Shown one piece after another: positions 1-63,349 of a stretch of DNA of 64,000 bases; within the stretch, counting starts at the first letter, position 1, and each line of letters begins with the position of its first letter. The position numbers and the translations under genes are program-made. The stretch comes from Escherichia coli (GTDB taxonomy: Bacteria; Pseudomonadota; Gammaproteobacteria; Enterobacterales; Enterobacteriaceae), in assembly GCF_002854065.1 (NCBI RefSeq), contig NZ_CP024151.1, one strand, 5' to 3'. Under the pieces are notes generated by a model. It was not told the origin of the DNA and did no database searches. It saw nothing but the letters and a program-made list of their open reading frames with translations.

Positions 1-125
1 TGCAGTTGCCATGTTTTACGGCAGTGAGAGCAGAGATAGCGCTGATGTCCGGCGGTGCTTTTGCCGTTACGCACCACCCCGTCAGTAGCTGAACAGGAGG
101 GACAGCTGATAGAAACAGAAGCCAC
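1..125 (-). CDS. insA: IS1 InsA, N-terminal part (3' end lies outside window)
   Basis: Minus-strand translation from GTG at 125 reads [41 protein letters not shown], the InsA N-terminus. Confidence 0.7.
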
Positions 126-180
126 TGGAGCACCTCAAAAACACCATCATACACTAAATCAGTAAGTTGGCAGCATCACC
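1..180 (-). mobile_element. IS1, terminal ~180 bp (element continues beyond window start)
   Basis: Reverse complement of 158-180 is the IS1 terminal inverted repeat GGTGATGCTGCCAACTTACTGAT; the following bases match the IS1 insA 5' region. Confidence 0.8.
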
Positions 181-709
181 AGATTCTGACCAGACGGTTC
201 AGGCTGTACGCTTACGGTTGTCGTGAAGGAGGGGGAAGACCATCTCATCGCTTACTGATGTTCCTGTTACTATATCTATTGAATCCTGGCTATAAGTTCG
301 CTGTTTAAAGAATTATATGAATAGCACCAATTAATAAGTTAATATTAAAAAGAAGACAGACCTTCTAAATAAACGCATTGAATCTATGTTCCCTTGTGAG
401 TGTTTTTACGTTTGGCGGGAGGCCTGGAACCTCGGGATTTAACTTTTCTTTTTATATTTTTGATAAAATCATCAATAGAAAACTGAATCGTCTCTGATAA
501 ATACTGTTGAGCTATATCTGTACTCTGTTTTTCTAAATCAGAAGCTTTCTTTGTTTCAAGAACAGATTTGATTAACTCCTTACGTTGTGTACACCAAATC
601 TCGTCAGATGAACAGTATTTTTTATTTTCGTGTTTGTTCATTATTTATTGCTCTAACTGATTTATTTCCCTATATCCAGGGAGTAGATATATCTACTCCC
701 TGCTTATTA

Positions 710-2407
710 TCATTTCACGTTAGTTAAAGATTTTTTTATATTCTCAAATTTGGCTTGGTTGATATCACTGATCGGTTTTTGACTTGACGTGATGAAGTCA
801 ATCATAACAGCCTTCATATTCTTAACCACATCAGGATGGGATGCAGAGAGATCTTTAGTTTGTTGCAGATCGTTGATATCGTACAGAGCTAGTTTATTCT
901 CTGCATAGGTGTAAACCAGAGAATAATCGTTGCTTCTTACAGTGTATGCAAACTGGCTTAAGTCTTCTGTATGTGGGTTGTGCGGATAATCATCAGACTC
1001 TTTTCTCACGAATTTATGATATCCGTTCCAGAATGCAGTGTTCTCTTCGTCCCACCAGTGAGAATAAGAGGTAATCCAGGACAGATATTTGTGAGGTTCG
1101 CCAGCTGCAGATTTCTTATCAGCTCCTTTCTGTACATATGGCAATAATGATACACCATCTAGTTTCAGAGAAGCAGGGATCTTGATATCTGCGGCATCTA
1201 AAGCGGTCGGATAGAAGTCCATTGATGAAACCAGTTTGTCATAATCACCCGTTTTCAGCTTGCCATTCCACCACATGAACATAGGTGTATGCATACCACC
1301 CGGATACGGTTGGCCTTTGTAACCAGCCTGCGCACCATTCAGTGGCAGTGGACCATCAATTACAGCACCGTTATCAGAGGTGAACAGAATGATGGTGTTG
1401 TCGTACTGACCTTTTTCCTTAAGTGTATTCAGGATCTTTTTAACCCCCTGGTCAACGGAGTAAATTGACGCATAATAGTTATCAGCAGTCTTGCTACCAG
1501 TGTTGAATTTCTCCTGATAGTTTTTAGGCGCAGGCTGATCGTTAGGCAGGTGTGGTGCACTGTATGCCAGATAAATCATAAATGGCTGTTCCAGTTTGCT
1601 TGCACGGTCAATTACACCAATTGCTTCATCAGTTAATTGATCACTAATGTACCCTTCAGCTTTAATGTTTTCACGGTTACGGAACAATGACGGGGAGTTA
1701 TAAAGTGAAACGCCGGATGCGTGATAGCCCATGAAGTAGTTGAAGCCACGATTCTGAGGTTGCCATTCTTCTGCGGAGAAGGTGGTGAAGTTATCGTGGT
1801 AGTCACGGGTTTGTTTTTCTTCAGGCACACCTACGTTGCTGATTTTTGATAAGTGCCACTTACCGATTGCTGCAGTGTAATAACCATGATTCTGAAGTAA
1901 TTCAGACAGGAATGTTTCTTCCAGAGGGATACCATCCTGTGCATCAGAATTTGAATATACACCGAAGCGAGCAGGAGCTCGCGCCGTCAGGATTGCGGCA
2001 CGTGAAGGGCCAGAGACACCGTGTGCAACATAGCCGTTAGTGAATTTTACACCTTCGTCCATCAGGGCCGCTAATGTTGGAGTGGATTTTTTTGCAGCTT
2101 CAATTGCTTTATCAATACCTATTTTGTATGTATCAACAACATTTCGGTTATCCATCGTTTTAGGGTCAAATGAACTATCATCAAAAGGCAATTGTCCATA
2201 CCCTAAATCATCCATTGTTAAAACAATGATATTTGGCTTACCTTTAGTGCTGTATTCCGTCGGCGTGAAGTCCGCAAAGGCAACATTGGTTTTTGTTGCT
2301 TTGAGCTTAACATCATCTGCTGCATTTGCAGTACTCATCATCAGACCAGATGCTAATATAAGTGATATTGATGAGTTAAGCAGTTTTTTATTTAACTGAT
2401 GTTCCAT
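710..2407 (-). CDS. Sulfatase family enzyme (Ser-type, signal peptide; YdeN/AtsA-like)
   Basis: 565 aa ORF with N-terminal signal peptide and sulfatase signature SGPSRAAILTARAP (S-x-P-x-R); ATG preceded by GAAGGA. Confidence 0.8.
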   Translation of the reverse strand: MEHQLNKKLLNSSISLILASGLMMSTANAADDVKLKATKTNVAFADFTPTEYSTKGKPNIIVLTMDDLGYGQLPFDDSSFDPKTMDNRNVVDTYKIGIDKAIEAAKKSTPTLAALMDEGVKFTNGYVAHGVSGPSRAAILTARAPARFGVYSNSDAQDGIPLEETFLSELLQNHGYYTAAIGKWHLSKISNVGVPEEKQTRDYHDNFTTFSAEEWQPQNRGFNYFMGYHASGVSLYNSPSLFRNRENIKAEGYISDQLTDEAIGVIDRASKLEQPFMIYLAYSAPHLPNDQPAPKNYQEKFNTGSKTADNYYASIYSVDQGVKKILNTLKEKGQYDNTIILFTSDNGAVIDGPLPLNGAQAGYKGQPYPGGMHTPMFMWWNGKLKTGDYDKLVSSMDFYPTALDAADIKIPASLKLDGVSLLPYVQKGADKKSAAGEPHKYLSWITSYSHWWDEENTAFWNGYHKFVRKESDDYPHNPHTEDLSQFAYTVRSNDYSLVYTYAENKLALYDINDLQQTKDLSASHPDVVKNMKAVMIDFITSSQKPISDINQAKFENIKKSLTNVK

Positions 2408-2502
2408 ATGGTATTCCTTCTGAGTTGCATCACGAACATTTATTAATAATAAAAGCCTCTGATATAAATAAAAACTATGTAAATCGTTTAAATGGATACC
2501 TG

Positions 2503-3639
2503 TTAAAACTGATACATCATACCAACAGCAAGTATATTATCGGTTGCAACTCCAGCCTTTTTGGTAAATTCGCTTTCATCAATAAGGTTAATTTTGTAAT
2601 CAATAAGAAGTGACATGTTTTTGTTCAGAAAGTAGTTTGCGCCAACATCAATATACTCAACAAGAGACTGATCGCCATAGTTTACTATTCCACCTTTAAC
2701 ATCCATCCCTTTGGACTGAACGTAAGCCAGTGAAGGACGCAGGCCGAAATCAAACATATACTGAGCCACAACTTCAATATTCCGTGCTTTATCTGCGATG
2801 CCTGCGCTACCAAATGGAGTCATATTTCGGGTTTCAGAGTAGTCAGCTGCCAGATACAGGTCATTATCATTATACTTGACCCCAACACCTGCAAACTCCG
2901 CATGTTTTCCCCCGGCAATCCAGCGAGGCGTAATAACTTCTTTTCCTTCTGAATCTTTCGATGTCATGAAACGTTTACGGCCTTCTTTTTCCTGCAGACT
3001 GGTTCTGTCGGCATTAGTGTAAGCGGCAACGATTCCAAAACCTTCATAGTCATAGCTTACGGAGAAACCATATCCATCACCATTAGCTTCAAGTAAATTA
3101 TCACGGTCATTTTTACCCTGATATTGAGCAGAAAAAGTAAGTCCATCAACAAGCCCGAAGAAATCTGTATTGCGCCAGGTCAGAACTCCGGTTGTTCTGC
3201 CGGTCATATAGTTATCAGAGTAAGTCCAGCTGTCACCACCAAAGTCCGGAAGTACGTCAGTCAGAGCCCCCACATCATAGGCAACACCATAGTTTCGCCC
3301 ATAATCAAGTGAACCGAGTATATTGTGGCGAATACCTGCAAATGCCAGACGATTTTTATCGTTGCGTACTTCACTTTCTGTCTTAAACCCCAGGAACTGG
3401 TATTCCCACTGACCAAAGCCAGTCAGGCTCTCATTAATTTGTGTTTCGCCTTTGAAACCAAGACGTGCAAATGTTCTGTCGCCATCCATAGAACCATCAG
3501 AGATGTAATGACGGGCTTTAACGCGACCATAAAAATCCAGTTTATTACCGTCTTTATTATAGATTTCTGCTGCCTGTGTTGCCTCACACAGCATTAATGC
3601 AGAAACGACAGAGCACACAACCACACTTAATTTTCGCAT
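2503..3639 (-). CDS. Outer-membrane general porin (OmpC/OmpF/PhoE family)
   Basis: Starts MRKLSVVV... with signal peptide, AEIYNKDGNKLD and GFGQWEYQ motifs, C-terminal ...MMYQF; start taken at internal ATG (track M8). Confidence 0.8.
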   Translation of the reverse strand: MRKLSVVVCSVVSALMLCEATQAAEIYNKDGNKLDFYGRVKARHYISDGSMDGDRTFARLGFKGETQINESLTGFGQWEYQFLGFKTESEVRNDKNRLAFAGIRHNILGSLDYGRNYGVAYDVGALTDVLPDFGGDSWTYSDNYMTGRTTGVLTWRNTDFFGLVDGLTFSAQYQGKNDRDNLLEANGDGYGFSVSYDYEGFGIVAAYTNADRTSLQEKEGRKRFMTSKDSEGKEVITPRWIAGGKHAEFAGVGVKYNDNDLYLAADYSETRNMTPFGSAGIADKARNIEVVAQYMFDFGLRPSLAYVQSKGMDVKGGIVNYGDQSLVEYIDVGANYFLNKNMSLLIDYKINLIDESEFTKKAGVATDNILAVGMMYQF

Positions 3640-4192
3640 AAAAAAATCCCCTGTGCACATTTTTAGTATGGTTTTAAAAATTAAACTATGGCGAAAAAAT
3701 TATCACCATGCAAATATGTAACAAAATATTTCTCGGTGATCTATGTTGTTGTTTTTATTTGAGGTTGTATATTTTCTAGTGTATTTGACTTTTCTTTCTT
3801 AAGTGTTATTTCTCGACCTTTATCACAGAACCATCTCCCTGGATATCCCCATAACATTGCATGAAAAGCAAGTTTTACCAATCTTGATTTTCAGTGTTAA
3901 ATAAGATTAATAACTGTAATTCTGCAAAAAAAAGAACACCATATGTAGTATGACTACGTATTCCACTCTGTTCGTTCACGGACTGGCATCGAAGTCTGAG
4001 GTGTACTGGCAATAGCGGATACAGTCATTTGTTCTTTTTTTAAGCATTCATCCGATGATACTTTTCCTGAATGCTACCGGAGTGGTATTCCCCTGCCGTG
4101 ATAGACTGGCCCCCTGAATCTCCAGACAACCAATATCACTTAAATAAGTGATAGTCTTAATACTAGTTTTTAGACTAGTCATTGGAGAGCAG

Positions 4193-4558
4193 ATGATTGA
4201 TGTCTTAGGACCGGAGAAACGCAGACGGCGTACTACACAGGAAAAGATCGCTATTGTTCAGCAGAGTTTTGAACCGGGAATGACGGTCTCCCTTGTAGCC
4301 CGGCAACACGGTGTGGCAGCCAGCCAGCTATTTCTCTGGCGCAAGCAATACCAGGAGGGAAGTCTTACTGCTGTGGCCGCAGGAGAACAGGTCGTTCCTG
4401 CCTCTGAACTTGCTGCTGCCATGAAGCAGATTAAAGAACTCCAGCGCCTGCTCGGCAAAAAAACGATGGAAAATGAACTCCTTAAAGAAGCCGTTGAATA
4501 TGGGCGTGCAAAAAAGTGGATAGCGCACGCGCCCTTATTGCCCGGGGATGGGGAGTAA
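4193..4558 (+). CDS. insC: IS2 transposase OrfA (InsC)
   Basis: [56 protein letters not shown]... matches IS2 InsC. Confidence 0.9.
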
Positions 4559-5421
4559 GCTTAGTCAGCCGTTGTCTCCGGGTGTCGCGTGCGCAGTTGC
4601 ACGTCATTCTCAGACGAACCGATGACTGGAAAGATGGTCGCCGCAGCCGTCACTCAGATGATATGGATGTACTTCTCCGTATACACCATGTTATCGGAGA
4701 GCTGCCCACGTATGGTTATCGTCGGGTATGGGCGCTGCTTCGCAGACAGGCCGAACTTGATGGTATGCCTGCGATCAATGCCAAACGTGTTTACCGGATC
4801 ATGTGCCAGAATGCGCTGTTGCTTGAGCGAAAAACCGCTGTACCGCCATCGAAGCGGGCACATACTGGCAAAGTGGCCGTGAAAGAAAGCAATCAACGAT
4901 GGTGCTCTGACGGGTTCGAGTTCCGCTGTGATAACGGAGAAAAACTGCGAGTCACGTTCGCGCTGGACTGCTGTGACCGTGAGGCACTGTACTGGGCGGT
5001 CACTACGGGCGGCTTCGACAGTGAAACAGTACAGGACGTCATGCTGGGAGCGGTTGAACGCCGCTTCGGCAACGAGCTTCCGGCGTCTCCAGTAGAGTGG
5101 CTGACGGATAATGGTTCATGCTACCGGGCTAATGAAACACGGCAGTTTGCCCGGATGTTGGGGCTTGAACCGAAGAACACGGCGGTGCGGAGTCCGGAGA
5201 GTAACGGCATAGCAGAGAGCTTCGTGAAAACGATAAAGCGTGACTACATCAGTGTCATGCCTAAACCAGACGGGTTAACGGCAGCAAAGAACCTTGCAGA
5301 GGCGTTCGAGCATTATAACGAATGGCATCCGCATAGTGCACTGGGTTATCGCTCGCCACGGGAATATCTACGGCAGCAGGCCAGTAATGGGTTAAGTGAT
5401 AACAGGTGTCTGGAAATATAG
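4516..5421 (+). CDS. insD: IS2 transposase OrfB (InsD), DDE integrase domain
   Basis: 301 aa ORF overlapping insC in another frame, as in IS3-family elements; matches IS2 InsD. Confidence 0.9.
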
Positions 5422-5832
5422 GGGCAAATCCAGTATCCGGATGTGCTGCCAGCCTTCTCAGTTAACCGATGTTTTCCGGGCTTTTTGCCATACTGAGGAC
5501 TGATAACGTATTCCTGGTCGTAAAACCCGTCAATATGCGCCGGGGCATCGACAAAACTGACACAGTACGTCCGGAAAGAACTTAACGCTGCATGGCACGA
5601 CAATGCTGCCTTTGTCTTTACCAACAAGGCTCGTTCCCGCATAAAAGTTCTACGCCGGGATAAACATGGCGTATGGCTGCGTCAGGCCTTCACTACTTCA
5701 CACCGGAAGTCTTCCAGCCTGACACGAATATACCGTCCGGGCTCTTTCGCAGGTGCAAACAGTTTTTCACATTCGGCGAATGTCATTTCTGAATCCTGGT
5801 AACGCAACCACTGAACCGGCATATTACCGGGT

Positions 5833-6438
5833 TTGATTATTGTCGCAGTTATTTTATATCGTTTCCCCATATCGCCTCTCATCCTGACAACAAAATTACC
5901 GGCTGAGCCAGGGGGCCCTCACCCCCCTATAAGGGGTCCGCTTGGAAACATATCGAAGAAAACGGCCGGCGGGAGGAATACGGCGCGCTACCTGGGTCGT
6001 TATCTGAAGAAGCCGCCGATAGCAGCCTCCCGGCTGGCACATTACAACGGAGGGGCGAGCCTGAGCCTCCGTTACCTGGACCACAAAATGGGAGAAACGG
6101 CGACGGAAACGCTGACACAGCGAGAGCTGGTCGCGAGGCTGAAACAGCACATCCCGGAGAAGTTTTTTAAGATGGTGAGGTACTTCGGGTTCCTTGCCAA
6201 CCGGGTGTGTGGAGAGAAGCTGCCGCAGGTGTACCGTGCTCTGGGGATGGATAAACCGGAAGCAGTGGCGAAAGTGTGCTATGCACAAATGATGAAACAG
6301 TTCCTGAGTCGTGATCCGTTCGAATGCGTGCTGTGTGGCAACCGGATGGTATACCGCCGGTCCCTTGCGGGGCTGAATGTATCAGGGCTGAAGAAAAACG
6401 CGCGGGATATCAGTCTGCTGAGGTATATGCTGGCCTGA
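5833..6438 (+). pseudogene. IS91-family transposase, C-terminal remnant
   Basis: ORF contains ARYLGRYLKKPPIAASRLAHYNGG...LRYLDHK, typical of IS91/IS801 transposase C-termini; no N-terminal HUH/Y2 domain, left part cut by IS2. Confidence 0.4.
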
Positions 6439-6704: not shown

Positions 6705-6980
6705 CTACCTGTTTTCTCGTGTGTGCCACAGGCGCAATACATAAATAGTCTGGCCAGTAAGTTCGTAACGGATTTCGTACTCGCCAGCATAAATCCGTCT
6801 GACCTCCCTGGGTTCAAACTGAAACAACTGTTCTCCCATACGTGGATGAGTTAACAGAATGACCGGTGCCTGTGTCAGGGACTGCACCGTTCTGGCTGCA
6901 GCTGGTTTACTGGCCAGCGCCAGAAAATCATATAACCGCGCCAAATCAGAAAGCGCCTTACTGGTCCACTTCAGTTCCAT
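6705..6980 (-). CDS. Type II toxin, RelE/ParE family
   Basis: 91 aa, start overlaps the stop of the upstream small gene; pattern ...RRIYAGEYEIRYELTGQTIYVLRLWHTRE typical of ParE/RelE. Confidence 0.75.
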   Translation of the reverse strand: MELKWTSKALSDLARLYDFLALASKPAAARTVQSLTQAPVILLTHPRMGEQLFQFEPREVRRIYAGEYEIRYELTGQTIYVLRLWHTRENR

Positions 6981-7264
6981 CAGCGAGGCACCGGTAACGG
7001 ATTGTCAGTACCGAGGCTGTCCGCCCAGGCCTGTACAGCCTGATGGTCGATAACCTGTCCGGATGTCACATCGTCCAGGGCTTCCAGCGTCAGGCGATTA
7101 CGCTCCTCCTCCTGGGCAAGCCATGCAGAAAGCGCCTGTTTGATAATCCAGCCCCGGGACCGTTCCAGTCTGGCGGCCATCTGGTCGACTTTATCAGCCA
7201 TAGGTAATGGCACATGCGCAGTAATTACTTTTGTTACTTGTGCGGTATTGTTTTTCATTTGCAT
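6980..7264 (-). CDS. Type II antitoxin, ribbon-helix-helix (CopG-like)
   Basis: 94 aa immediately upstream of the toxin with 1-nt overlap; RHH-like segment RLERSRGWIIKQALSAWL; start could be the track M1 or the ATG 6 nt downstream. Confidence 0.7.
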   Translation of the reverse strand: MQMKNNTAQVTKVITAHVPLPMADKVDQMAARLERSRGWIIKQALSAWLAQEEERNRLTLEALDDVTSGQVIDHQAVQAWADSLGTDNPLPVPR

Positions 7265-8174: not shown

Positions 8175-9032
8175 TCAGGGGGAAGCTGTGGCCAGCCGGC
8201 TGTAATTACGGTTACGTGACAGAATCATGCGCTCTTTCACACGACGCTCCACTTCGCGTTTTACCGCCTCACGATTGGCAGTGAAGCGCCCTTCCGAGAT
8301 TTCACGCGTCAGCTGCCGTTTCACCAGGGTGACGATATCCTGACGTTCCCTGTTCGCATCACGACGCGCACGGGCACGCTTTATTCCACGGGACTTAAGC
8401 TCTGTCTGGTAACTGCGGAAACGCTCACGCACAAAACGCCAGGCTTTCGCTATCAGTTCATCCATACCCAGGGTATCCAGTCCCTGCTTTTTGCGCTGTC
8501 TGTTTTCCCATTCAACACGACTGCGGCGCGCAGCAACTACTGCATCCTCAGACACATCAAGGGCGGCAAATAGCGCCGGTGTGAACGTGATATCGGTCGG
8601 AATGTAGCACCCGATAAGCGGATCATATTCCGTCTGGTAGGTAATCAGTCCCAGCTCTGCAAGGAACGTCAAGGCTCGGGTGGCCCGGGTGATGGAGAGT
8701 TTTCCGGCAGCAGACTCCGTCGCCAGTCCGCACTCAATGGCCAGCGTAGTGATGGAGCACTGGACGCGGTTGGCCAGCGGGTCATAGTGAAAACACAGCC
8801 CCTGCAGCAGCGCATCAATAGCCCGGCGACGCAGTACCGGTGGCATGCGCCGACGCAGTCCCTTCGAACGGGCATGTGCCACATGAATGGCGAAATCAAA
8901 ACGGGAGGTGAAGCCCACCGCCTTTTCCATCAGTTTTTCGCAGAACTTCAGCGTTCCGGCACCTTCACGGGGTGTGAACACCGGATTCGGGTTTTTAACC
9001 TGTGAATAGTATTTTTGAAGGAGATCAGCCAT
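8175..9032 (-). CDS. repA1: Replication initiator RepA1 (IncFII)
   Basis: From internal ATG: [56 protein letters not shown]..., near-identical to R100/R1 RepA1. Confidence 0.9.
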
Positions 9033-9108
9033 GTCCCCCTCCAACACTATTCCCCCTCCTACGGGCGGCAACTAGCTCGTCTGGGCCGACACGTAAAGTT
9101 TCGAACAT
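9025..9108 (-). CDS. tap: repA1 leader peptide (tap/repA6-like), translationally coupled
   Basis: 27-codon [30 protein letters not shown] whose stop overlaps the repA1 start codon, the arrangement known for IncFII tap. Confidence 0.45.
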
Positions 9109-9805
9109 ATCTGGTCTGAACCAGATGGTTCCTCCATCAAAAGCGATGAGATGAAGATCATTATCAAGAGTTTTGAGGGCTCTCCAAACACGAGTGTATG
9201 AACCTCCACTACAAACTGAAAGCTCTTTAACAGATAAGTTAACTTTGTTCGTATCAGGGATGTAGTGTGCGCACATTACTTGTACGAGGGAAACATAAAA
9301 ACTAACCATCGACGCGCTGATTTTATTTTTACGTTTGCCATGCGCTATTGCAAGAAAACCTCTGATGAAGATCAGATGCTTGAAGGAGTCAAAATGAGCC
9401 CTTTTCTGGAGAAGGCAGCAAAACGGGTGAGGATACTTGCTGGAATCAATGTGAAGATCTGATTCAATCCCACCCGCTATTACTGAATGTGTTTCATGAT
9501 TAGCCACACCATCCTGCACTTACAATGCACAGAAGGAGTGAGCACAGAAAGAAGTCTTGAACTTTTCCGGGCATATAACTATACTCCCCGCATAGCTGAA
9601 TTGTTGGCTATGCGGTTTTATGGGGCCCCGGTAATCTTTCTAGTCGCCAAACTTGAAGAAGATTATCGGGGTTTTCGCTTTTCTGGCTCCTGTAAATCCA
9701 CATCAGAACCAGTTCCCTGCCACCTTACGGCGTGGCCAGCCACAAAATTCCTTAAACGATCAGCAATCTACCACTCACTCCTGAGATAAGCAAGAATGTG
9801 AATAT

Positions 9806-10178: not shown

Positions 10179-10529
10179 TTACGACCGTTTAATGTGATTT
10201 TGATAATGAAATGACTGAAAAGCTGGAAATGCCTTAGCCAGGGTGCCGGCCCCGGGCGGGACCGGCTGTTTCTGGTATATAGGATGTCTGCCCCTGAAAT
10301 ACCTCACACTTCCGGAAAGCGGGGACTTCCGTGCTTCGTAGGCCAGAGTTACCTGCACCACTGTATTTCCTCTGTGAATATTCAGCTCACATAACCGTTC
10401 CCTGAATATCAGTGAAAAACACAACACCATGGCGCACACGGCGAGCAACCCGATAAGGGCATATTTCGTCATAAACTTTGACCTCTCTGCAAAGAAGAGG
10501 CTACAATCAGTAGTGTTAAGGTACTTCAT
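10179..10529 (-). CDS. srnB: SrnB/PndA (Hok-family) toxin locus: mok-like leader in frame with toxin; ORF lacks the expected stop
   Basis: MKYLNTTDCSLFFAERSKF-MTKYALIGLLAVCAMVLCFSLIFRERLCELNIHRGNTVVQVTLAYEARK matches SrnB; reading frame continues 48 codons past ...EARK. Confidence 0.7.
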   Translation of the reverse strand: MKYLNTTDCSLFFAERSKFMTKYALIGLLAVCAMVLCFSLIFRERLCELNIHRGNTVVQVTLAYEARKSPLSGSVRYFRGRHPIYQKQPVPPGAGTLAKAFPAFQSFHYQNHIKRS

Positions 10530-11478
10530 GCAGACCTCACGAGTTAATGGATTAACGAGTGGGGTCTTCGCATTTCTGGTACCTGCGTCTTGCCTGAACC
10601 AGAAAGGCTCAGACACCCGCCGCGATAATACCACATTCCCTGTTGCTGGCTATTACCCCCATTTGCCTGTTTTTGTTACAAAAACGCCGGGAGCGGGGGA
10701 AAACTTACTTTTTCCCGTTTCCGGGGGGGACAACTGAGCATTGCGAACGCGTCAGCTACGATGTTCCGGTGATTGCTGATCAGCCCCTGTTGTATTCATA
10801 AACTAATTAACATTCATTCCGTCTGGTGCATAAATCTGCCCGTGAACATCTGCAGACAATACCGACCATAAAAAAATAAATAATCCCAGTAGAATATATT
10901 TCCTCATATTATTATCCATAACAAATAAATGGCACCTGTACACCTGTATTTCAGGCAATCCTGAATATTGCAGCGCACATTGAATAAGACGTTATTTCGT
11001 GACATTAATCACAAAATATAAAATCGCGACTTAATACGGAAAAAACTCTGTGCTACTCAGAACTGACTGGTCATACTGCCCGACCGGATATTAAAAAAGC
11101 AAATCTCATAAACTCCTTTCAGCCTTCTGACTCCTGGAGTAATGAAGGCTGCTTTTTCGTTACACCCTTCCCCGGCAGCGCCGGTAGCAGTGTTCAGCCC
11201 TTTTTCGGGCAAACTGCTGCCAGTCTGTCCGGGGCGCAACACAGGCAGCCCGTCGCCATCCTTCTGCCGCTTCCATCCAGCGTCCACTGACCTCCAGAAT
11301 AACGGCCCGGCTTCCGGCACGCTGCCAGCGCCAGACCTGACCGTTCCGTGAACTGTTTCTGAATCCATTCATCTTTATCACTCCTCTTTAACCCGTCAGT
11401 ATTATGGTGTTAAATAATCTACTGAATTGGCTTCCTTTCGGGTACGGAAGTTTATTTCCTTTTAAGCCTTATTTCCCT

Positions 11479-18157: not shown

Positions 18158-20319
18158 CAGAAATCATCTCCCGGCTCAACATCCTCCCCACGCTCCCGGT
18201 GCACATTAATGTTCACCTCTTCACGACGCTGCATCTGCTGCTGGATGTCCGGATGATTTTCCTGTTGCCATGCCTCATAAGCGGCCATATCCACCACTTC
18301 ACCGGATTCACTGATCCCGGGTGGCAGTTGCTGTTCCATCTCTTCTTCCGGTTTCATTTTCAGCTCCTGCTCGATCCCCCCTGCCGGAACATTCACACCT
18401 GAATCTGACTTCTTATCGTTTATGGCAGGAGACACCGGCTGTTGCGGCTGTTGCGGCTGTTCAGCCTGAGTCACGTCTTCTCCGGAAACAACTTCCGGCA
18501 CATCCGGTTCGAAGAGGCTGGCCATCTGACGACCTTCTGCTTCCCTTGCGGCAAGTACGGCACTCAGACGGTTCTCCATTTCCGGGTTGATGTCACGCGG
18601 AATAAACTCAGGGGCAACCTTCGGACGTGCCTGATATTTCAGTGAGAGTTTTACTGCCGGATACGGTCCGGGCAGGGTGACATAACAAGTCAGATCCGGC
18701 AGAGACTGAATGTCGGAATAACTGACCAGCGTCTGGCGCTCCATATCCTTACCGGTCGATACCCCGTCACGTACCGGATCAGCACCGTAGGAATACTGCT
18801 CGCTGGCTTTCAGGTGCTCTTTCTCACCAATCTCACCGGCAGCGAACTCTGCAATCTTATGGCTGGGAGAACGGAAAAAGGCACGAGTGTTCATGACGTC
18901 AAACAGCGTGGCAGCCGCTTTCTCACCGTAGATATCTTCCAGCTGGGCATAGGACTGGATACCAAACACATAACAGCCACCGAACTTACGGGCTTCCGGC
19001 AGGATCTCCACCAGGTCCGGCAGTTTGTGTAACGTGGGTAGCTCATCACAGAAAAACCACACACGACGGTTACGGTTTTCTCCCATTGCCAGCAGACCAC
19101 GAATGGCAATGGACAGCCACATGGAGATCACCGGCTTCAGGGAGGCATGGGTGTCGGCATTCGACGAGATAAACAGCCAGCCGTTTTTCTGATCTTCCCG
19201 GACACCCCGCATCCAGTCACGGATGGTAAAAGACTCACCGTTATGCTCAATCCCCTGCAGGTAACGGATGGCTTTCACGTAGTTGGTCAGCACAGCACGG
19301 ATGGAAATCGCCGTTTTCTCAATTTTCTCTTCCACCAGGTTGGCCGCCGGTGAATTACGCAGGAAGGTACGCAGTTTTTCGATTTTGATGGAAAGCAGTG
19401 TGTCCACCAGTTTGCTGTAGCTGCGGTTGGGGTCATTACGCATCAGGTACGCCGCTTCCGCAAAAATGGTACGTCCTGAACCCTGCCAGAACGGGTCCTC
19501 TTTTGTGCCCATCGGGATCAGAGTATTTGCGGTATTATCAAAATCCGGCTGTGTCAGGCACTCCTTCCACAAATCCCAGGCGGCACAACGGGCATCCAGC
19601 GGATTCAGGATTTTATCGATGGAGGGATCATAGTAACTTTTAACAAATTCCCCTGAACGGTCATAAATCACCACCATATCTCCACGCTGACGGGCGTAGT
19701 TGGCCAGACGACGGATAACTTCCGACTTACCGGCCCCGACCGTGCCGTGCAGACAGAAGTTCTGGATTTCGGAATCCCGGATAATCGGCAGGTCGCCAAT
19801 CCGTATATCGGAGTCCTTGCCGTCTTTTTTCAGCATCCGGGCAACGTCTTTCGGGTTCTCCGTCAGCTGACGACCACCTGTGACTTCATTTTCGCTCTGT
19901 TGTTTACCCTGACGCCCCAGAATCCAGGAGACAACAAAGAAGGTAATCAGGCAAATAACCAGTGCCACAACTGTAGCCAGAACGAATGCGGACCATAGCT
20001 GCTCTCCGCACCAGATCATATATTTATCATGCAGTACCTGAGCAGCGTTCATCCGGAAGGTTTTGCCGTAATACTGGATCTCATAGACCGGCTGGGACTT
20101 GATTAAATCCCGCATGCCTTCCAGCGTGGTACACCACCAGTAAATACAGCCGTTCACAAACGTCTGCCAGCTTATTTTTACCCATAAAACCAGACCAACG
20201 AGTATCCAGAAAAAAATAAACAGGCAGTAAAGCATGATATTGGCGATCTGGCTGAACATGCGGATACGCATGGACGCAATCTGACCGCCCTGGGTCATAT
20301 CCTTTGCGTTAAAACTCAT
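18157..20319 (-). CDS. traD: TraD type IV coupling protein
   Basis: 720 aa [24 protein letters not shown]..., Walker [10 protein letters not shown]-terminal QQP repeats; stop overlaps traI start. Confidence 0.97.
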
Positions 20320-26020: not shown

Positions 26021-26319
26021 TCTTGCCCTCCCTTAATTTGTTCTCCCGGCGCATACGACATTTCAGCAGGAATATCCTGATATTTCCGTCCAGTCCTGCG
26101 GCTGTAATATATTTCAGACACCGAAATCCATCCCACAATTGCCCCCACAAAAAACACAACAGAAACAGAAAAGGTAAGGCACAGCGAAACGACAATTTCT
26201 ACAGGGCTGGCGGGATAAAAAAGCCCCTGACGGATAAAGGGGATATTCAGGCTGACGATTATTCCCGTCGCGATGCCGGATATTCCGGCAATGAGTAACA
26301 CCACCTGCTTATTTCGCAC
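26017..26319 (-). CDS. trbJ: TrbJ-like small membrane protein (start uncertain: GTG at 26319 or ATG at 26379)
   Basis: ORF between trbB and traH with hydrophobic core VVLLIAGISGIATGIIVSL; only ~290 bp separates trbB and traH so a separate trbF is absent. Confidence 0.45.
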   Translation of the reverse strand: MRNKQVVLLIAGISGIATGIIVSLNIPFIRQGLFYPASPVEIVVSLCLTFSVSVVFFVGAIVGWISVSEIYYSRRTGRKYQDIPAEMSYAPGEQIKGGQE

Positions 26320-26854
26320 CTTTTTTTCCTCCGTACATCTGCAGAACGGTATCCATCCGCGCCATAAAACCGGCGGCATCCGTTGCCCCCTGTAAAAGCG
26401 GTAATGCCTCAAGCGTGTTGACGTTGACCAGGAAGGTGGTCGGTGTGGCCACCGGGATATTCGGGAAGAAGGTCTGCATCACGTCCGGTGGCACCGGTAA
26501 TGCTTCCGGAAAGGCGGTATCCCCCTGACCATCCAGGGTGTAGGGAAAAACGGAAAAGCCGTACTGCTGTGCCAACTGCTTCAGTACCGGGTCAAACTGG
26601 TGACAGTAAGGGCAATGCCCCTGCATAAACAGCACCACCTTCCAGTCGGCCAGGTTAACCTGCCTGCCGTTGCTGAGGCGGAACCAGCGGGGAGCCGGCT
26701 TTTCTGTCCTGGCTGATGTGTCTGCTGCCGGTTGTGCAGGCTGCGCGGCCATGCCCTGCGGATTCCAGAGTCGTTCAATTTCATCCCGGGTGGAGGCCTG
26801 CACGGCAGCGGCTGCCAGCAACAGGGTGAACAACAGTGATTTAATGAGAGACAT
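26309..26854 (-). CDS. trbB: TrbB periplasmic thiol-disulfide isomerase (DsbC-like)
   Basis: 181 aa with signal peptide and CPYC active-site motif. Confidence 0.9.
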   Translation of the reverse strand: MSLIKSLLFTLLLAAAAVQASTRDEIERLWNPQGMAAQPAQPAADTSARTEKPAPRWFRLSNGRQVNLADWKVVLFMQGHCPYCHQFDPVLKQLAQQYGFSVFPYTLDGQGDTAFPEALPVPPDVMQTFFPNIPVATPTTFLVNVNTLEALPLLQGATDAAGFMARMDTVLQMYGGKKGAK

Positions 26855-41394: not shown

Positions 41395-42081
41395 TTACTT
41401 AACGCTATAAAATTCACGAATTATATTTAATAGCAAATCTATTTTCCCTTTATAGATACATGACACTCTGAATAAATCAAAGTGTTCAAAAAATTCTTTT
41501 ATTTTCCGTTTAACTGGTTTAATTCGATCCTCAGATGCTCTGTCTGTAATACCCAATTCTCTGGCAATTGTTGCATGACCAACACCCAGCATATAAAAAG
41601 AGAAAACAAGCAATGTCCCGGGGGAAAGATCATTCCATATCGTTAATTTATCAGAAGTATTTGTATTACTTCCACTCTGACTTAACGCAAAAAATGGATA
41701 ATCAGGAAACGGATTAATTTGCCATAAAACAACAGATTCGTCATTATAAAAAGAAACATTCTCCATCCTTATCTGATAGATTTCGCCATGAAAATTAAAA
41801 CGACGACAAAATGCAGAGCCATGTCCAAGAGCCTGGCATTCCAATTCAAGTGATGAAAGAAAAATTTCAACCTGCAGACGTATATAACTCTCTCCGGATA
41901 AGGGTTTATCTTCTCTGGAAAAGAGTTCAATAAAAGCCCCATTGGCATAAAGGATTTTCCGGTTTTTGTTACGGACACAAACCGGAACGGGAGAATTTCT
42001 GTAGATATTCTGAACGTTAAGGATGTACTTATTTACAGATTGACTGTTAAGTGGCCTTTCTCTACGATCCAGCGCACACAT
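41395..42081 (-). CDS. traJ: TraJ transcriptional activator of the tra operon
   Basis: Position between traY and traM; start taken at internal ATG ([13 protein letters not shown]...) preceded by GGAGG; 228 aa. Confidence 0.8.
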
Positions 42082-42152
42082 AGGAACCTCCGTTAAGGAT
42101 TCTATGGACAGTCGATGCAGGGAGTTCAGACCTCCCTGCATCGGCGATTTTC
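42072..42152 (+). ncRNA. finP: FinP antisense RNA (approximate bounds)
   Basis: Antisense to traJ leader/RBS; hairpin GATGCAGGGAG-N6-CTCCCTGCATC followed by GCGATTTT on the plus strand. Confidence 0.5.
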
Positions 42153-42271
42153 AGTTTCAATTTTTAACGTGGCATTAACCACGTAATTAATATACTAATT
42201 ATCTGACGTATTGTCATCTTTTTGAATCATAAAAATTCTTATATTTGAACCAACTCAAACTTCATTTTCAT

Positions 42272-46024: not shown

Positions 46025-46183
46025 CTACTTACCGGATTCGTAAGCCATGAAAGCCGCCACCTCCCTGTGTCCGTCTCTGTAACGAATCTCGCACAGCGAT
46101 TTTCGTGTCAGATAAGTGAATATCAACAGTGTGAGACACACGATCAACACACACCAGACAAGGGAACTTCGTGGTAGTTTCAT
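46025..46183 (-). CDS. hok: Hok-family toxin (Hok/FlmA-like), intact
   Basis: [52 protein letters not shown]; 3' UTR GC-rich fold-back region follows. Confidence 0.85.
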
Positions 46184-46241
46184 GGCCTTCTTCTCCTTGC
46201 GCAAAGCGCGGTAAGAGGCTATCCTGATGTGGACTAGACAT
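46029..46241 (-). CDS. mok: Mok/FlmC-like overlapping reading frame
   Basis: 70-codon ORF overlapping hok in the +1 frame. Confidence 0.6.
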
Positions 46242-46462
46242 AGGGATGCCTCGTGGTGGTTAATGAAAATTAACTTACTACGGGGCTATCTTCTTTCTGT
46301 CACACAACACGGCAACAAACCACCTTCACGTCATGAGGCAGAAAGCCTCAAGCGCCGGGCACATCATAGCCCATATACCTGCACGCTGACCACACTCACT
46401 TTCCCTGAAAATAATCCGCTCATTCAGACCGTTCACGGGAAATCCGTGTGATTGTTGCCGCA

Positions 46463-47182
46463 TCACGCCGCCTCCCGGAGTTTGTTCGGCACCATCCATC
46501 GCTCCATCTCACGGACGGCATGACCGGCCTCCCTTGCCGCCATACCAGCCTCTGCGATGACCTGCCAGAATGGCATATCCTGCCACTGCCAGCGTTCCAT
46601 TCCGGCCAGTGACGGAAAACGCTCGCCCCACTGCCAGAACAGGGTTTCCAGGTCATGCTCTGCCACCCGGTCACTCCAGCGTGCATGCCAGCTTCCGACT
46701 GTTTCCGGTGAATGAAATGCCAGTTCGATTTCAGCCTGAGCGACCAGCGCCTGGTACGCACGGGCTTTCTGCTCTGTCTCCCTCGCCTGCTGGCGGCTGT
46801 ACTTCTGCATGACCAGCGCGGATTTATGGCGACTGCGTTCCCTGACACGAAACCGCACCGACGGGAACAAGCGCTCTGCTGCATCACCGGGAAGGGGAAG
46901 GAGGCAGACCTCGCCCTGTGTTTCAATCAGCACATCGATGGCATACAGCCACTGAAGACGGTTGCCGTGCAGTTCTTCTGCGGTCAGGGACGGCATGAAA
47001 AATCGCAGGTCAGACAGCGATATCCTGCGGCTTCCGTTCAGACAGCGGAAAAACGCCCCCGCATACGGATATTCAGCCAGCGTGTTACCCTGATGGCGGC
47101 GTTTTTCGGTCTCCGCCACCGCCCGCCATGCGGCCTGTTGCTCTGTGCTGAGAGGAACCAGTGCCTGTGAACGTGCGCTCAT
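46463..47182 (-). CDS. psiA: PsiA (plasmid SOS inhibition operon protein A)
   Basis: 239 aa [50 protein letters not shown]... Confidence 0.9.
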
Positions 47183-47613
47183 GCCTGACCTCCTTCCGCC
47201 ATCAGGATATGGATGATGTCGTTAACGCTGTATCCCTGCGTATCCAGTGACGCCGCCAGTGCCAGTGAATGGCTGACGGCTTCCGGTGCAAACCGCCGCT
47301 GTACCTGAACCACCGCAAACGGCTCACCACCGGCATTCACCAGAACCAGCACCCAGACCTGGGAGACATCGCCCGGTGAACATAACGCCAGGTGAAAACG
47401 TTCGTGGGCAGGCGTGAAACGGACCTGGACGGGGAAAAAGCCGCCAAACTCGCTGCCGTACTCGCCGTTCATCGTCCAGTTGTCCGGCGCATCCAGCTCC
47501 CGCATCACGGCGTGTGTCAGCTCACGGCGTGCATCACTTCCGGCAGCCCGGATATCTTCATATTCCTGTGCGTTCATGGTATGTAATACATTCAGAGTCA
47601 GTTCAGTTTTCAT
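47179..47613 (-). CDS. psiB: PsiB (anti-SOS, RecA inhibitor)
   Basis: [46 protein letters not shown]...; stop overlaps psiA start. Confidence 0.95.
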
Positions 47614-47667
47614 CACGGTATCTCCCTTGCTGCCGCCCCGTCTCCGGCGGGGCGGTGTGGTTGTTCA

Positions 47668-49626
47668 TCAGGCGGCATCAGCCAGGTTATCGGTGCGTTC
47701 AGTGGCATCCGTCTGTGGGCGTGGTGCACACATCCAGCCAGGCACCCAGCGGTTGTCTTTCATATGGTGCTCTGCATGTTCAGCCGCATCGCCTTTCTTC
47801 ATCTTCTCCGCGTCCCGTGCGGCACCGGATAGTCCTGCCTCATTCAGGGCTGCGATAATCTGCGGCTTTTTCAGGTGTCCGAAAAAGTTTGCTTTCGTCG
47901 GCTGCCACCAGTCGCGCATGTGAAAGCCGATGGCGCTCTCCAGCGTGTCCAGCGGACTGCGTGACGTGTGACCATACTCACGGGTCTGGACACCGTGGAT
48001 ACTGCACGCGGTGCAGAAACTGAGCAGTGATAACAGCACCTCCTGACTGAGTGACAGGAACGTCGTCATATCCCGTGCCCATCCATCCGGCAGCAGGGCG
48101 GCAAGACGGGCTTTTTCTGCCATCATCGTCATGAATGCGGCACCTTCCTTCCCTGACGGCGCATCGCTGGTCAGCGAATAATGCTCACATTCCAGGCGGA
48201 TTCTGGCGGGATTGCTGTAAGCTCCGCTGCCAAATACATTCAGACAGAGTGTCCATGCCAGAAGTGCCAGGGATTTGTCCGGCTGCTGCATCAGTGCTGC
48301 CTGGACTGCCAGCGTGCGCTCTGAGGACATTTTCGTCAGCAGTGGCAGACTGATTTCCTCCACGGAGGCTTTCTCCTGCACCTGTTCCGTGTGGTCAGCG
48401 TCGTCAGCCACATCATCCTCACTGCGTAACTGCACACCACGCTGGACACATACGTTTCCATAACGCCAGGACACCACCACGCCACTTCCGGCACGCATCT
48501 CCGGCGTCCACGCCCTGACCTTCGCCATGCAGTCAATCAGCTTCATTTCTGCTTCCAGCAGGTCGGATTCCTCACACTGGTTTTCCAGCGCATCGTAACG
48601 TGCCATCAGTTTGTTCAGGCGTTCTTCTTCTGCCTCCGTCAGCACCGCTTCCGGCTCCGGCAGACTGCGGTATGTTCCGGCATCCTCACGGCACTCACCA
48701 ACGGCCTCCATGCGTCCGGCACACCATCCCCAGCCCTCGGCTTCCCGAAGGTGTTCAGCAACAGCCTGGAGTTTTTCCAGCAGGGCAGCATCGAGCGCAA
48801 CACAGTCCACATAGCCACCCTCGTCGTCGCTGAACAAATCGGTGCGCAGTTCATCTGGCGAGAAGGCATCAGCCCCCACAAAGCGGAATTTAGTGTTCCC
48901 CGCCACCGCCACTTCACTTTCGGTCACCAGACGACGAATGGTCTGTACTTCCGGTTTTCCGCCCCATCCCGACTGACAGGCAGCTTCAAACACCTGCACC
49001 TGACGCGCGGTGTCGTTCTCCAGCGCCAGCGCCTGACAGTGCTCTGTGGTGATGCGGTCTTCTGCCAGCGCATCGAGGATGACAGGCGCAAGGTCTGCCA
49101 GTTTCAGCATTCGCTGAACGTGGCGGGGTGAATAGCCCAGCAAATCACCGATTTGTGCAGGCGTTTTGCCTTCCTGCGCCATTGCACGGAATCCGGCAAT
49201 CTGTTCGGCAGGGTGCATATCCCGACGATGACCGTTTTCAGTCATTGATGCGGCAGTCGCCAGTTCCTGCGGAATAACCTTCACGCGGACAGGCCAGTCA
49301 GCCGGAAGGATGTTGCGCTCTGCCAGCATGTTGAGTGCTGCCAGTCGGCGACCGCCTGCGGCGACACCGTAACGGTCACCTGGCAGGGCATGAACAACCA
49401 GATTCTGCAGCAGGCCGACGCCCTTAATGGACTCTGCCAGTTCGCTGACAGACTCCGCAGAATACGGCACCGTGCGCACATTCAGCGGTGACTTAATCAG
49501 CGAGGCCAGCGGCACGCTCACTTCAGCCGTCTCCGCCAGCAGGGCCGACAGGACTGTTTCCTGCGTTTTTGCAGGTTTACGGCTGGATTTACGCTCCGTT
49601 TTTACCTTAGACTCTGTAACTGACAT
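47668..49626 (-). CDS. ParB-like nuclease domain protein (652 aa leading-region protein)
   Basis: N-terminal ParB/Srx-like segment LVVHALPGDRYGVAAGGRRLAALNML; start at internal ATG preceded by AAGGAG. Confidence 0.8.
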   Translation of the reverse strand: MSVTESKVKTERKSSRKPAKTQETVLSALLAETAEVSVPLASLIKSPLNVRTVPYSAESVSELAESIKGVGLLQNLVVHALPGDRYGVAAGGRRLAALNMLAERNILPADWPVRVKVIPQELATAASMTENGHRRDMHPAEQIAGFRAMAQEGKTPAQIGDLLGYSPRHVQRMLKLADLAPVILDALAEDRITTEHCQALALENDTARQVQVFEAACQSGWGGKPEVQTIRRLVTESEVAVAGNTKFRFVGADAFSPDELRTDLFSDDEGGYVDCVALDAALLEKLQAVAEHLREAEGWGWCAGRMEAVGECREDAGTYRSLPEPEAVLTEAEEERLNKLMARYDALENQCEESDLLEAEMKLIDCMAKVRAWTPEMRAGSGVVVSWRYGNVCVQRGVQLRSEDDVADDADHTEQVQEKASVEEISLPLLTKMSSERTLAVQAALMQQPDKSLALLAWTLCLNVFGSGAYSNPARIRLECEHYSLTSDAPSGKEGAAFMTMMAEKARLAALLPDGWARDMTTFLSLSQEVLLSLLSFCTACSIHGVQTREYGHTSRSPLDTLESAIGFHMRDWWQPTKANFFGHLKKPQIIAALNEAGLSGAARDAEKMKKGDAAEHAEHHMKDNRWVPGWMCAPRPQTDATERTDNLADAA

Positions 49627-61976: not shown

Positions 61977-62405
61977 TCAGAATAATTTTTGCATTTTAAG
62001 GCGCACATCATTCATTGCCTCCTGCACCGAATCAGTAGCAGAAGGAGGCATTTTTTCAGCAGATTGCAAAGCACCGAGTTCAGTCAACACAGCTCTGATA
62101 TCGGCCTGAGAAGGCTTCCATCCTGTCGTCTGACTGAGTAAGGTTACAACCTGATCTGCTGAAAACTCCTCGCTCAAAATGGCAGTCAGCAATACAGGCA
62201 GGCGAGGATCAAGTTGGTGTAACGCCATTCCAGAAATAAATGCATTCCGGAACAGCTCACCACGCTCAGAACGCGGAACGGACTCTATCGCTTCCAAAGC
62301 TTGAAAGTCTGCAGCTTTTTCCGGATGCAGATAAAGTGTGAATTTTTTCCTTTTCCGTTCATCGTCCACAATATTACTCCTCTTTGAAAGCCGCGATAGC
62401 TTCAA
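61977..62405 (-). CDS. parR: ParR/StbB centromere-binding adaptor (type II partition)
   Basis: ESVPRSERGELFRNAFISGMALHQLDPRLPVLLTAILSEEF parallels R1 ParR; directly downstream of parM; start uncertain. Confidence 0.75.
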   Translation of the reverse strand: MKLSRLSKRSNIVDDERKRKKFTLYLHPEKAADFQALEAIESVPRSERGELFRNAFISGMALHQLDPRLPVLLTAILSEEFSADQVVTLLSQTTGWKPSQADIRAVLTELGALQSAEKMPPSATDSVQEAMNDVRLKMQKLF

Positions 62406-63345
62406 CCAGTGCTGTCTGTGGCGACTCCATCATCACTACTTTTTGCCCAAGATGGTGCCATGCCGTTTTTATCGAATCATAGATCAACGGGGCCCCACCA
62501 CCGACAACATAAACACGATTCACATGATGAAAATCACCGAGCTCATTGACTACTTGCTCCCCCAGACTGGCAATAGCCCCCTCAATGGTATTAAGGACCA
62601 GATCAGTTTTTGTTTCGTCATTTATAACCTGCCGAACAAAGTCCGGGTCATTACGACGTTTAATCAATTCATCTGCAACGAGGAAACTGGTATCACTGGA
62701 TGCCATGCGCAATGCACTCATTGCAGCTTTCGTAACTGAAGACACACCAATGCCAGAATTACCATGAATGGCACTTACAGAGTCAAATTGACCAACGATA
62801 ACACCAACATCAAGCGTAGTGCCGCCAATATCAACTACCAGCGATTTTTCGAACTGACCAACTTTATCCATGACCAGACGAGAAAACACAGCTGGCAATG
62901 ATTCAGGCATCACATCAACGTGTTCAATGGTGAAAACATCGCCTTTATTAAGACGAATCGGCCTCATTAAATTCTCAATTTTACGCTGAATGTTGAGTTC
63001 ATTTTTTTGACACTCTTTCGTGTAGAACTCACTGATAGGCAAAGTCACAGTCAATGATACAGGCTGAGGCGCTAATCCACTATTCAGTAAAGCGTGATGC
63101 ACAGCTAACAGGTTAACATCCGTATATTGATACTCAATATGAGTCGTAAGAATAGATTGGTTGCTAACTTCATCATACGTGTATTTTTTACCATCCAGTT
63201 CATAGTTAAATGTCTGGCGAATCCCTAACCCGTCAACCTTCCATCCATGACGAAATGAGTTTTGCGACAACGACTTACAGATTTTCCCATTGTCATTCCA
63301 TGCCAACTTGATTGTTGTTGAACCATCATCGCAGTATACGTTCAT
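62374..63345 (-). CDS. parM: ParM/StbA actin-like segregation ATPase
   Basis: 323 aa MNVYCDDGSTTIKLAW... with DIGGTT and VVGGGA motifs. Confidence 0.9.
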   Translation of the reverse strand: MNVYCDDGSTTIKLAWNDNGKICKSLSQNSFRHGWKVDGLGIRQTFNYELDGKKYTYDEVSNQSILTTHIEYQYTDVNLLAVHHALLNSGLAPQPVSLTVTLPISEFYTKECQKNELNIQRKIENLMRPIRLNKGDVFTIEHVDVMPESLPAVFSRLVMDKVGQFEKSLVVDIGGTTLDVGVIVGQFDSVSAIHGNSGIGVSSVTKAAMSALRMASSDTSFLVADELIKRRNDPDFVRQVINDETKTDLVLNTIEGAIASLGEQVVNELGDFHHVNRVYVVGGGAPLIYDSIKTAWHHLGQKVVMMESPQTALVEAIAAFKEE

Positions 63346-63349
63346 CTAT

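Follow-up and report, generated by a model that had tools for sequence, protein, structure and literature searches.

How does a sulfatase of a type that has to be activated by a separate enzyme come to lie beside an outer-membrane porin on a conjugative plasmid of Escherichia coli, and what might the two genes do there? This question is raised by a stretch of 64,000 nucleotides of contig NZ_CP024151.1 (hereafter, the window, meaning the whole stretch of DNA that was analyzed). An identical plasmid record, NZ_CP096835.1, corresponds to pPM4-5-103k, an IncFII/FIB conjugative plasmid of 103.9 kb, and the window spans its positions 26607-90606. Three open reading frames (ORFs), all on the minus strand, occupy window positions 384-3660 and encode a porin, a sulfatase, and a product of 85 amino acids (aa). 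Our data identify this segment as part of a known pathogenicity island, annotated but not yet studied, that is carried on IncF plasmids. The island is the Locus of Adhesion and Autoaggregation (LAA) of Shiga toxin-producing E. coli (STEC) that are negative for the locus of enterocyte effacement (LEE). As far as sequence comparison can tell, its one unusual feature is that selection has maintained a Ser-type sulfatase in the absence of the maturase that all its relatives have, in the company of a porin and an orphan ORF. Our preferred reading, to which we give a probability of about 0.6 as a whole, is that a captured LAA fragment carries a porin-sulfatase-ORF unit in which the sulfatase is an orphaned paralogue of YdeN that uses a host maturase, and the porin is an ordinary one.

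The sulfatase gene (710-2407, minus strand) encodes a 565-aa S1 sulfatase that matches Pfam PF00884 with an E value of 1.9e-65, residues 58-408 covering model positions 1-301 of 301. It is 78% identical at the aa level to YdeN of E. coli K-12 over the full length, and 63-75% identical to YdeN-family proteins of Yersinia, Salmonella, Leminorella, Citrobacter, Budvicia, Mixta, Aeromonas, Vibrio, and Anaerobiospirillum. Its score against the NCBIfam arylsulfatase model (123 bits) is far from the cut-off of 481. Translation of positions 1979-2014 (minus strand) gives the signature SGPSRAAILTAR, in which Ser132 is the putative formylglycine precursor; because this motif is present, the enzyme is classed as Ser-type, as is the entire YdeN family, and the residues around the target Ser differ from those of YdeN at only two positions. 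In an alignment of 11 YdeN-family sequences, residues D66, D67, S132, R136, K183, H185, H286, D345, N346, and K364 were invariant, as was P134, with catalytic and metal-binding roles assigned by alignment to solved sulfatases and from family knowledge. A Sec-type signal peptide was read by eye at residues 1-29 (2321-2407, minus strand); it aligns with that of K-12 YdeN, contains an AxA site, lacks a twin-arginine motif, and is expected to be cleaved after ANA, between ANA and ADD. The motif and signal peptide together bear out the view of the first-pass annotation that this is a periplasmic, Ser-type sulfatase.

Sulfatases of this type are expected to have their Ser converted to formylglycine by a cytoplasmic radical-SAM/SPASM enzyme, the anaerobic sulfatase-maturating enzyme (anSME), before Sec export, as described for Klebsiella AtsA-AtsB (family knowledge and PMC10114670). 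We examined 25 other YdeN-family loci, namely those of 21 species representatives, of K-12, and of three more contigs that include mobile elements of Salmonella and Proteus-like bacteria, and found an anSME gene 40-350 bp downstream of the sulfatase in every one of them (25/25). The plasmid locus has no such neighbor. Indeed, tblastn with two anSME queries returned no match in the 64-kb window, in the rest of NZ_CP096835.1, or in the chromosomal LAA contexts of 34-44 kb, and the gene is also absent from the diverged copies described below. A decayed remnant downstream of the sulfatase was considered and discarded, as the same searches of the window, the remaining plasmid, and the chromosomal contexts gave no match. 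Since no anSME follows it immediately, we file the sulfatase as a paralogue of YdeN rather than an orthologue, and these comparisons indicate that the anSME gene was lost in the lineage leading to the LAA and plasmid sulfatases.

The first-pass annotation had correctly noted that the window holds no maturase gene, and had proposed that maturation depends on a host gene or on one upstream in the plasmid. The upstream option falls away with the tblastn result for the remaining plasmid, and the host option stands: the realistic source is ydeM, which reaches a coverage of at least 80% in 98% of complete E. coli genomes (5334 of 5426). Given this near-universal presence, it is plausible that the sulfatase could be activated in trans by the chromosomal YdeM of the host, or possibly by AslB. 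The near identity to YdeN around the target Ser points in this direction as well.

Members of this family travel elsewhere as well. Complete sulfatase-anSME pairs resembling ydeN-ydeM occur as cargo of integrative/conjugative elements in Salmonella and other Enterobacterales (contig L013, 7001-9905; contig L014, 7001-9877), and the Proteus plasmid pNDM_NMG38-2 has a ydeM-ydeN pair (PMC8615141), which leads us to conclude that the YdeN family has been mobilized repeatedly, normally together with its maturase. A further ydeN-ydeM locus, on contig JARKOR010000108.1 of a metagenome-assembled genome (MAG) labelled Candidatus Nanosynbacter, cannot be distinguished in identity from that of Escherichia and probably reflects an E. 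coli contig wrongly binned into a Patescibacteria MAG.

A search with the 85-aa ORF uncovered diverged copies of the triad in four assembled contigs, where it is flanked by an integrase or IS remnants; the flanks of the diverged contigs L104-L108 match accessory E. coli DNA only in part. With the most distant copy (contig L107, 86% nucleotide identity) as reference, the dN/dS was 0.055 for the sulfatase (dS of 0.53), 0.11 for the porin (dS of 0.57), and 0.31 for the 85-aa ORF (dS of 0.46). In addition, two allele groups of the sulfatase within E. coli differ by 7 synonymous and 2 non-synonymous changes. The low dN/dS values and this ratio of changes argue that the sulfatase and porin have been retained by selection since the maturase was lost. 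The synteny in all four contigs and the similar dS values indicate that the three genes diverged together. An interim view, in which the pairing was accidental and unique to one island, was dropped once these copies had been found. The idea that sulfatase and porin form a unit thus survives, as synteny and purifying selection persist at a dS of about 0.5.

Where did the unit come from? Among the 5426 complete E. coli genomes, copies of the module lie at 108 chromosomal and 12 plasmid places (~90% chromosomal). Positions 216-4101 of the window are 99.7% identical to chromosome NZ_CP075640 and 98.9% identical to LAA module II of the O113:H21 strain FWSEC0010. In the latter genome, the order is the ato genes, iha, btuB, the three genes of the unit (85-aa ORF, sulfatase, porin), IS66 remnants, a DUF1187 gene, an AraC regulator, and a serine-protease autotransporter, and the plasmid keeps the run from the 85-aa ORF through sulfatase, porin, and IS66 remnant to DUF1187 at near identity. 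The genes of LAA module II (iha, btuB, sulfatase, porin, and lesP) are mentioned in PMC6920203 and PMC6174562. Neither iha nor lesP nor a tRNA integration was found in the window or beside the module on the plasmid, and therefore the segment is considered a fragment and not the island itself. Eleven plasmids in PLSDB have the very same junctions (about 100% identity), which argues for one capture event followed by spread of the plasmid; at least 12 conjugative IncF plasmids have the module, and they come from pigs, humans, and sheep. In strain DETEC-P1056, the module is present both on the chromosome (NZ_CP116169.1) and on an IncF plasmid (NZ_CP116170.1).

These data replace the earlier picture of a plasmid-borne cargo module with that of a fragment of a chromosomal island. 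They also agree with the capture half of an outcome that the first-pass annotation had itself entertained, i.e., that the region is a chromosomal ydeN-like segment captured incidentally, in that a 99-100% identical LAA fragment was found. We propose that positions 216-5910 represent a piece of LAA module II that came to lie between an IS1 and an IS91 remnant of an IncFII/FIB plasmid in a single capture event, that IS2 landed inside it later, and that it would have reached the plasmid by IS-mediated hitch-hiking and not as a trait built for the plasmid.

The boundaries are consistent with this proposal. On the left, positions 1-180 (minus strand) hold the end of an IS1 (IS1A) that runs off the window edge, with its terminal inverted repeat ggtgatgctgccaacttactgat read at 158-180 (minus strand); the IS1A transposase is annotated at 26034-26731 of NZ_CP096835.1, extending to window position 125. 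Homology to LAA by blastn begins at 216, and the intervening 35 bp (181-215) match neither IS1 nor LAA sequence. The LAA-derived block with the three-gene unit (216-4101, minus strand) has a G+C content of 40%, compared with 52% for the whole window. It is followed by a complete IS2 (4102-5432, plus strand), whose TnpA and TnpB score above the NCBIfam cut-offs and whose ends were read in the sequence. LAA homology then resumes at 5433-5910, which is 99.8% identical to positions 19154-19631 of a chromosomal LAA context (L001); blastn and the annotation of NZ_CP096835.1 place an IS66 tnpB fragment (about 5490-5679) and a DUF1187 gene (5682-5870, minus strand; PRK09750 match) in this stretch. The IS2 is therefore an insertion within the captured fragment and not its edge. 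No 5-bp target-site duplication surrounds it (left flank CGTGA, right flank GTATC), and relative to two chromosomal LAA contexts (L001 and L019) the LAA sequence is short by 351 bp on its right side, a combination that suggests an IS2-associated adjacent deletion.

Because LAA homology continues past IS2, the right boundary is the remnant of an IS91-family transposase (about 5950-6438, plus strand). Only its C-terminal third is left, matching positions 226-355 of 356 of the NCBIfam transpos_IS91 profile as well as Pfam Y2_Tnp, and PGAP labels it a "transposase, missing N-terminus." Thus, of the brackets assigned to the module earlier, IS1 on the left is confirmed, and the IS91 remnant on the right holds as a boundary; the IS2 that had been placed with it is internal. 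Since the flanking elements differ (IS1 vs the IS91 remnant) and the internal IS2 has no target duplication, the segment does not qualify as a composite transposon.

The porin gene lies upstream of the sulfatase on the same strand (2503-3639; the longest ORF extends to 3660). Its likely true start is the ATG at 3639, as annotated by PGAP, giving a general-diffusion porin of 378 aa in the OmpC/OmpD/NmpC/Lc clade, with a Porin_1 (PF00267) match at an E value of 8e-124. This confirms an OmpC-family porin beside the sulfatase, as had been claimed. The protein is 57% identical to each of K-12 OmpC, OmpF, and PhoE, and it scores below the NCBIfam equivalog cut-offs for all three (441 vs 484 for OmpC, 420 vs 599 for PhoE, and 411 vs 583 for OmpF). 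It bears the marks of the family, with a mature N-terminus of AEIYNKDGNK, PDFGGD in loop L3 (PEFGGD in the family), and a C-terminal YQF. In the constriction zone it has the same residues as OmpF and OmpC, and most differences fall in the external loops. Lys125 of PhoE is a determinant of anion selectivity; the porin has Gly at this position (YMTGR, as in OmpD/NmpC, vs FMTKR in PhoE), and we accordingly rejected the candidate of a PhoE-like, anion-selective porin. The closest relatives (64-66% aa identity) are morons of lambdoid E. coli prophages, inserted between the minor tail gene M and the tail gene L, and no sulfatase gene lies near them. Such moron porins were seen in contigs L007 (7001-8164), L010 (7001-8116), L008, L009, L011, and L012, at a site other than the one occupied by the classical Lc/NmpC porin genes. 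No porin occurs within 5 kb of the sulfatase at any of the 25 other YdeN-family loci. Taken together, the canonical constriction, the Gly at the PhoE Lys position, the moron relatives, and the lack of a porin at those loci speak against the earlier description of this porin as "dedicated"; it looks like a general extra channel.

The third gene, an orphan ORF of 85 aa downstream of the sulfatase (384-641, minus strand), had gone unmentioned in the first-pass annotation. Its product is rich in lysine and arginine and has no signal peptide, and it gave no match in Pfam or NCBIfam. A search of 1.84 billion representatives returned no homologue outside the module; homologues occur solely next to this sulfatase. 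Across the copies, a single Cys is conserved and the C-terminus is variable. The possibility that it belongs to a known family or acts as a maturation factor was rejected on these grounds (no family match, no outside homologues, and one conserved Cys). Between it and the sulfatase, 7 nt past the stop codon of the latter, lies a hairpin with a perfect 11-bp stem (677-702, minus strand; RNA folding dG of -20.2 kcal/mol, z of -4.3), whose pairing is fully kept in the diverged copies L104 and L107 with 4 compensated pairs. Since a U-tract is missing, this is not a canonical terminator, and it is probably a 3' stabilizing or attenuating hairpin. The 95-bp spacer between porin and sulfatase (2408-2502, minus strand) contains an AGGA ribosome-binding site and, on the minus strand, no terminator-like site; its predicted fold (z of -1.07) is no better than that of shuffled sequence. 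The spacer is compatible with co-transcription of the two genes. An Rfam scan placed no RNA family within the porin-sulfatase module, all matches being plasmid RNAs elsewhere.

What might the enzyme act on? The subfamily was placed solely by sequence matches to PDB entries, as an AlphaFold2 model built from the 11-sequence alignment was discarded (mean pLDDT of 46). The best matches to solved structures were S1_19 galactose-4-sulfate (carrageenan) sulfatases, with E values of 1e-56 to 9e-43 over residues 107-444, followed by S1_16 4-sulfatases and GalNAc-6-sulfatases. On this basis, a sulfated hexose or N-acetylhexosamine is a reasonable guess for the substrate. The sulfated host glycans suggested in the first-pass annotation are likewise a guess. 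A literature search on YdeN, YdeM, and the LAA sulfatase and porin yielded no study of their function.

We therefore outline the following scheme in conditional terms. The porin, sulfatase, and 85-aa ORF would form a three-gene unit on the minus strand, probably expressed as one transcript. Before export, a radical-SAM anSME in the cytoplasm would oxidize Ser132, within SGPSR, to formylglycine, as expected from the family, and the chromosomal YdeM of the host, or possibly AslB, would most likely serve as this maturase in trans. After Sec export, the enzyme may remove sulfate in the periplasm from small sulfated sugars that enter through porins; our best guess, a weak one drawn from the closest solved relatives, is a substrate of the galactose or GalNAc 4-sulfate type. 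The porin might add, at most, outer-membrane permeability for small sulfated solutes, and it displays no sign of specificity.

Several points weigh against the reading that we prefer. The conserved linkage of 3.3 kb on a mobile element could be the co-inheritance of two independently selected genes. Upstream of the porin, a simple scan for promoters gave no consensus match. The reading does not account for the hairpin next to the sulfatase or for the orphan ORF. We know of no demonstration that YdeM matures any sulfatase. The substrate of YdeN itself is unreported (PMC10878103), and the maturation of sulfatases in E. coli has been described as not understood (PMC8379841). Finally, according to Szameit 1999, in the form in which PMC10114670 cites it, a Klebsiella Ser-type sulfatase requires co-expressed AtsB in E. 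coli.

The first of these points leads to the strongest rival, in which porin and sulfatase are independent passengers that happen to lie 95 bp apart on a mobile island. The porin, which resembles prophage-borne genes of the Lc/NmpC type, would serve surface variation or the replacement of a phage or colicin receptor, and the sulfatase would be an unrelated metabolic gene. We regard this as unlikely, although a good part of the porin evidence fits it, namely that its nearest relatives are tail-gene morons with no sulfatase nearby, that a porin is missing within 5 kb at the other YdeN-family loci, and that its divergence is mostly in the external loops with a canonical constriction and no PhoE-type Lys. 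Against it, the arrangement and spacing of the genes have been kept at a dS of about 0.5, with equal dS in the three genes, no terminator separates porin from sulfatase, and the substrate of a periplasmic enzyme must cross the outer membrane.

Alternatively, the sulfatase may be a dead relic that acquires no formylglycine without its cognate anSME and persists as inactive cargo, so that only the porin, or nothing, is under selection. The absence of the otherwise universal downstream anSME favors this, as does the requirement for AtsB in laboratory E. coli cited above. However, the sulfatase ORF is intact in every copy examined, with invariant catalytic residues; its dN/dS of 0.055 over a dS of 0.53, and the 7 synonymous vs 2 non-synonymous changes between allele groups, speak against a relic. 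Moreover, ydeM is a core gene, and E. coli has yielded active Ser-type sulfatases with no maturase added (PMC8379841). We consider the relic improbable. The last rival, a purpose-built, plasmid-selected trait for dedicated uptake and desulfation of sulfated host glycans, carried as an IS-bounded cargo module, has in its favor that the unit is conserved under purifying selection, flanked by IS elements, and present on the at least 12 IncF plasmids of pigs, humans, and sheep; it is nevertheless very hard to reconcile with a distribution that is ~90% chromosomal and in LAA, a single set of plasmid junctions pointing to one capture, unlike flanks and an internal IS2 that make no composite transposon, a porin without specificity features, and a neighborhood that, far from resembling a sulfated-glycan utilization locus, links the sulfatase to a general porin and an orphan ORF among IS elements, with no transporter, regulator, or glycosidase nearby.

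Returning to the captured LAA fragment with its orphaned YdeN paralogue, we may also ask how much the unit does on its own. One bolder extension is that the triad is a self-contained operon for scavenging small sulfated sugars, which shed its own maturase and relies on YdeM or AslB in trans in the anaerobic gut, with the 85-aa ORF and the hairpin as new accessory or regulatory parts. We rate this extension as speculative and rather doubtful. If it were true, there would for the first time be in vivo evidence that YdeM works as a Ser-type maturase, and that it serves more than one client.

What YdeN acts on and what YdeM does are two minor but long-standing gaps in what is known of E. coli, and a second YdeN-type sulfatase that has no private maturase, yet remains under strong purifying selection, amounts to a natural experiment: such an orphaned sulfatase predicts that a chromosomal anSME acts in trans. 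The unit is enriched in LEE-negative STEC, through LAA, and conjugative IncF plasmids have since spread it in pigs and humans. Should it free sugars or sulfate from sulfated host glycans, it would count as a colonization factor; otherwise, it would be ordinary island cargo.

The rest of the plasmid shows the setting into which the fragment came. Between the IS91 remnant and the IncFII replicon there are genes for a RelE/ParE-family toxin (6705-6980) and a CopG-family antitoxin (6980-7264). Elements of IncFII replication and transfer control (repA, CopA RNA, two hok/sok loci, and FinP with the traJ leader) map to 8175-9680, 10460-10618, 42075-42184, and 46181-46357, and their presence confirms an F-type conjugative backbone. 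An IS150 lies in the leading region (72906-74275 of NZ_CP096835.1; window about 46300-47669), and psiA and a gene for a umuC-like Y-family polymerase are annotated in that record as frameshifted pseudogenes (74482-75244 and 88752-90022, i.e., window about 47876-48638 and about 62146-63416). To the left of the window, NZ_CP096835.1 carries two large autotransporter genes (contig L109, 7359-11474 and 18953-23029), one of them for an S6-family serine protease, along with ompP, among IS elements. Over its final 0.9 kb, the gene for the S6 protease matches the LAA autotransporter at 82-84% identity, and so there appears to be other LAA-like virulence cargo nearby.

How does the locus compare with known systems? 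LAA module II shares with it positions 216-4101 and 5433-5910 at 98.9-99.8% identity in equal gene order; the plasmid holds a fragment of only ~4.4 kb, interrupted by IS2, with a 351-bp deletion, in an IncF location, and its window lacks iha, btuB, and lesP. With YdeN-YdeM of K-12 (b1498-b1497), the sulfatase has in common the Ser-type motif, the kind of signal peptide, the invariant catalytic residues, and the 78% identity. In contrast, it has no ydeM-like gene downstream, a porin upstream and the orphan ORF downstream, and it lies outside the ydeO-ydeP neighborhood, so that the AraC/ydeO-region regulatory context is absent. The mobile ydeM-ydeN cassettes of pNDM_NMG38-2 and of contigs L013 and L014 likewise present a YdeN-family Ser-type sulfatase as mobile cargo, but there the maturase accompanies the sulfatase and no porin does. 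Klebsiella AtsA-AtsB, the prototype of a Ser-type sulfatase with a radical-SAM maturase, serves as the model for the expected maturation mechanism, although AtsA is an arylsulfatase of another S1 subfamily and AtsB is encoded beside it, whereas no maturase is linked to the plasmid sulfatase. The iota/kappa-carrageenan sulfatases of Pseudoalteromonas (S1_19; PDB 6b0j, 6bia, 6psm, and 9hh2) align with it in the active-site motifs; they are Cys-type, marine enzymes of moderate identity, and relative to them the plasmid sulfatase has ~30 extra residues (78-108) and a longer C-terminal domain. As for the porin, the prophage OmpC-like porins (Lc of PA-2, NmpC, and the morons of contigs L007-L012) belong to the same clade (58-67% identity), also travel on mobile DNA, and share long, variable external loops, but they are single-gene morons, whereas here the porin stands directly upstream of a sulfatase in an island fragment.

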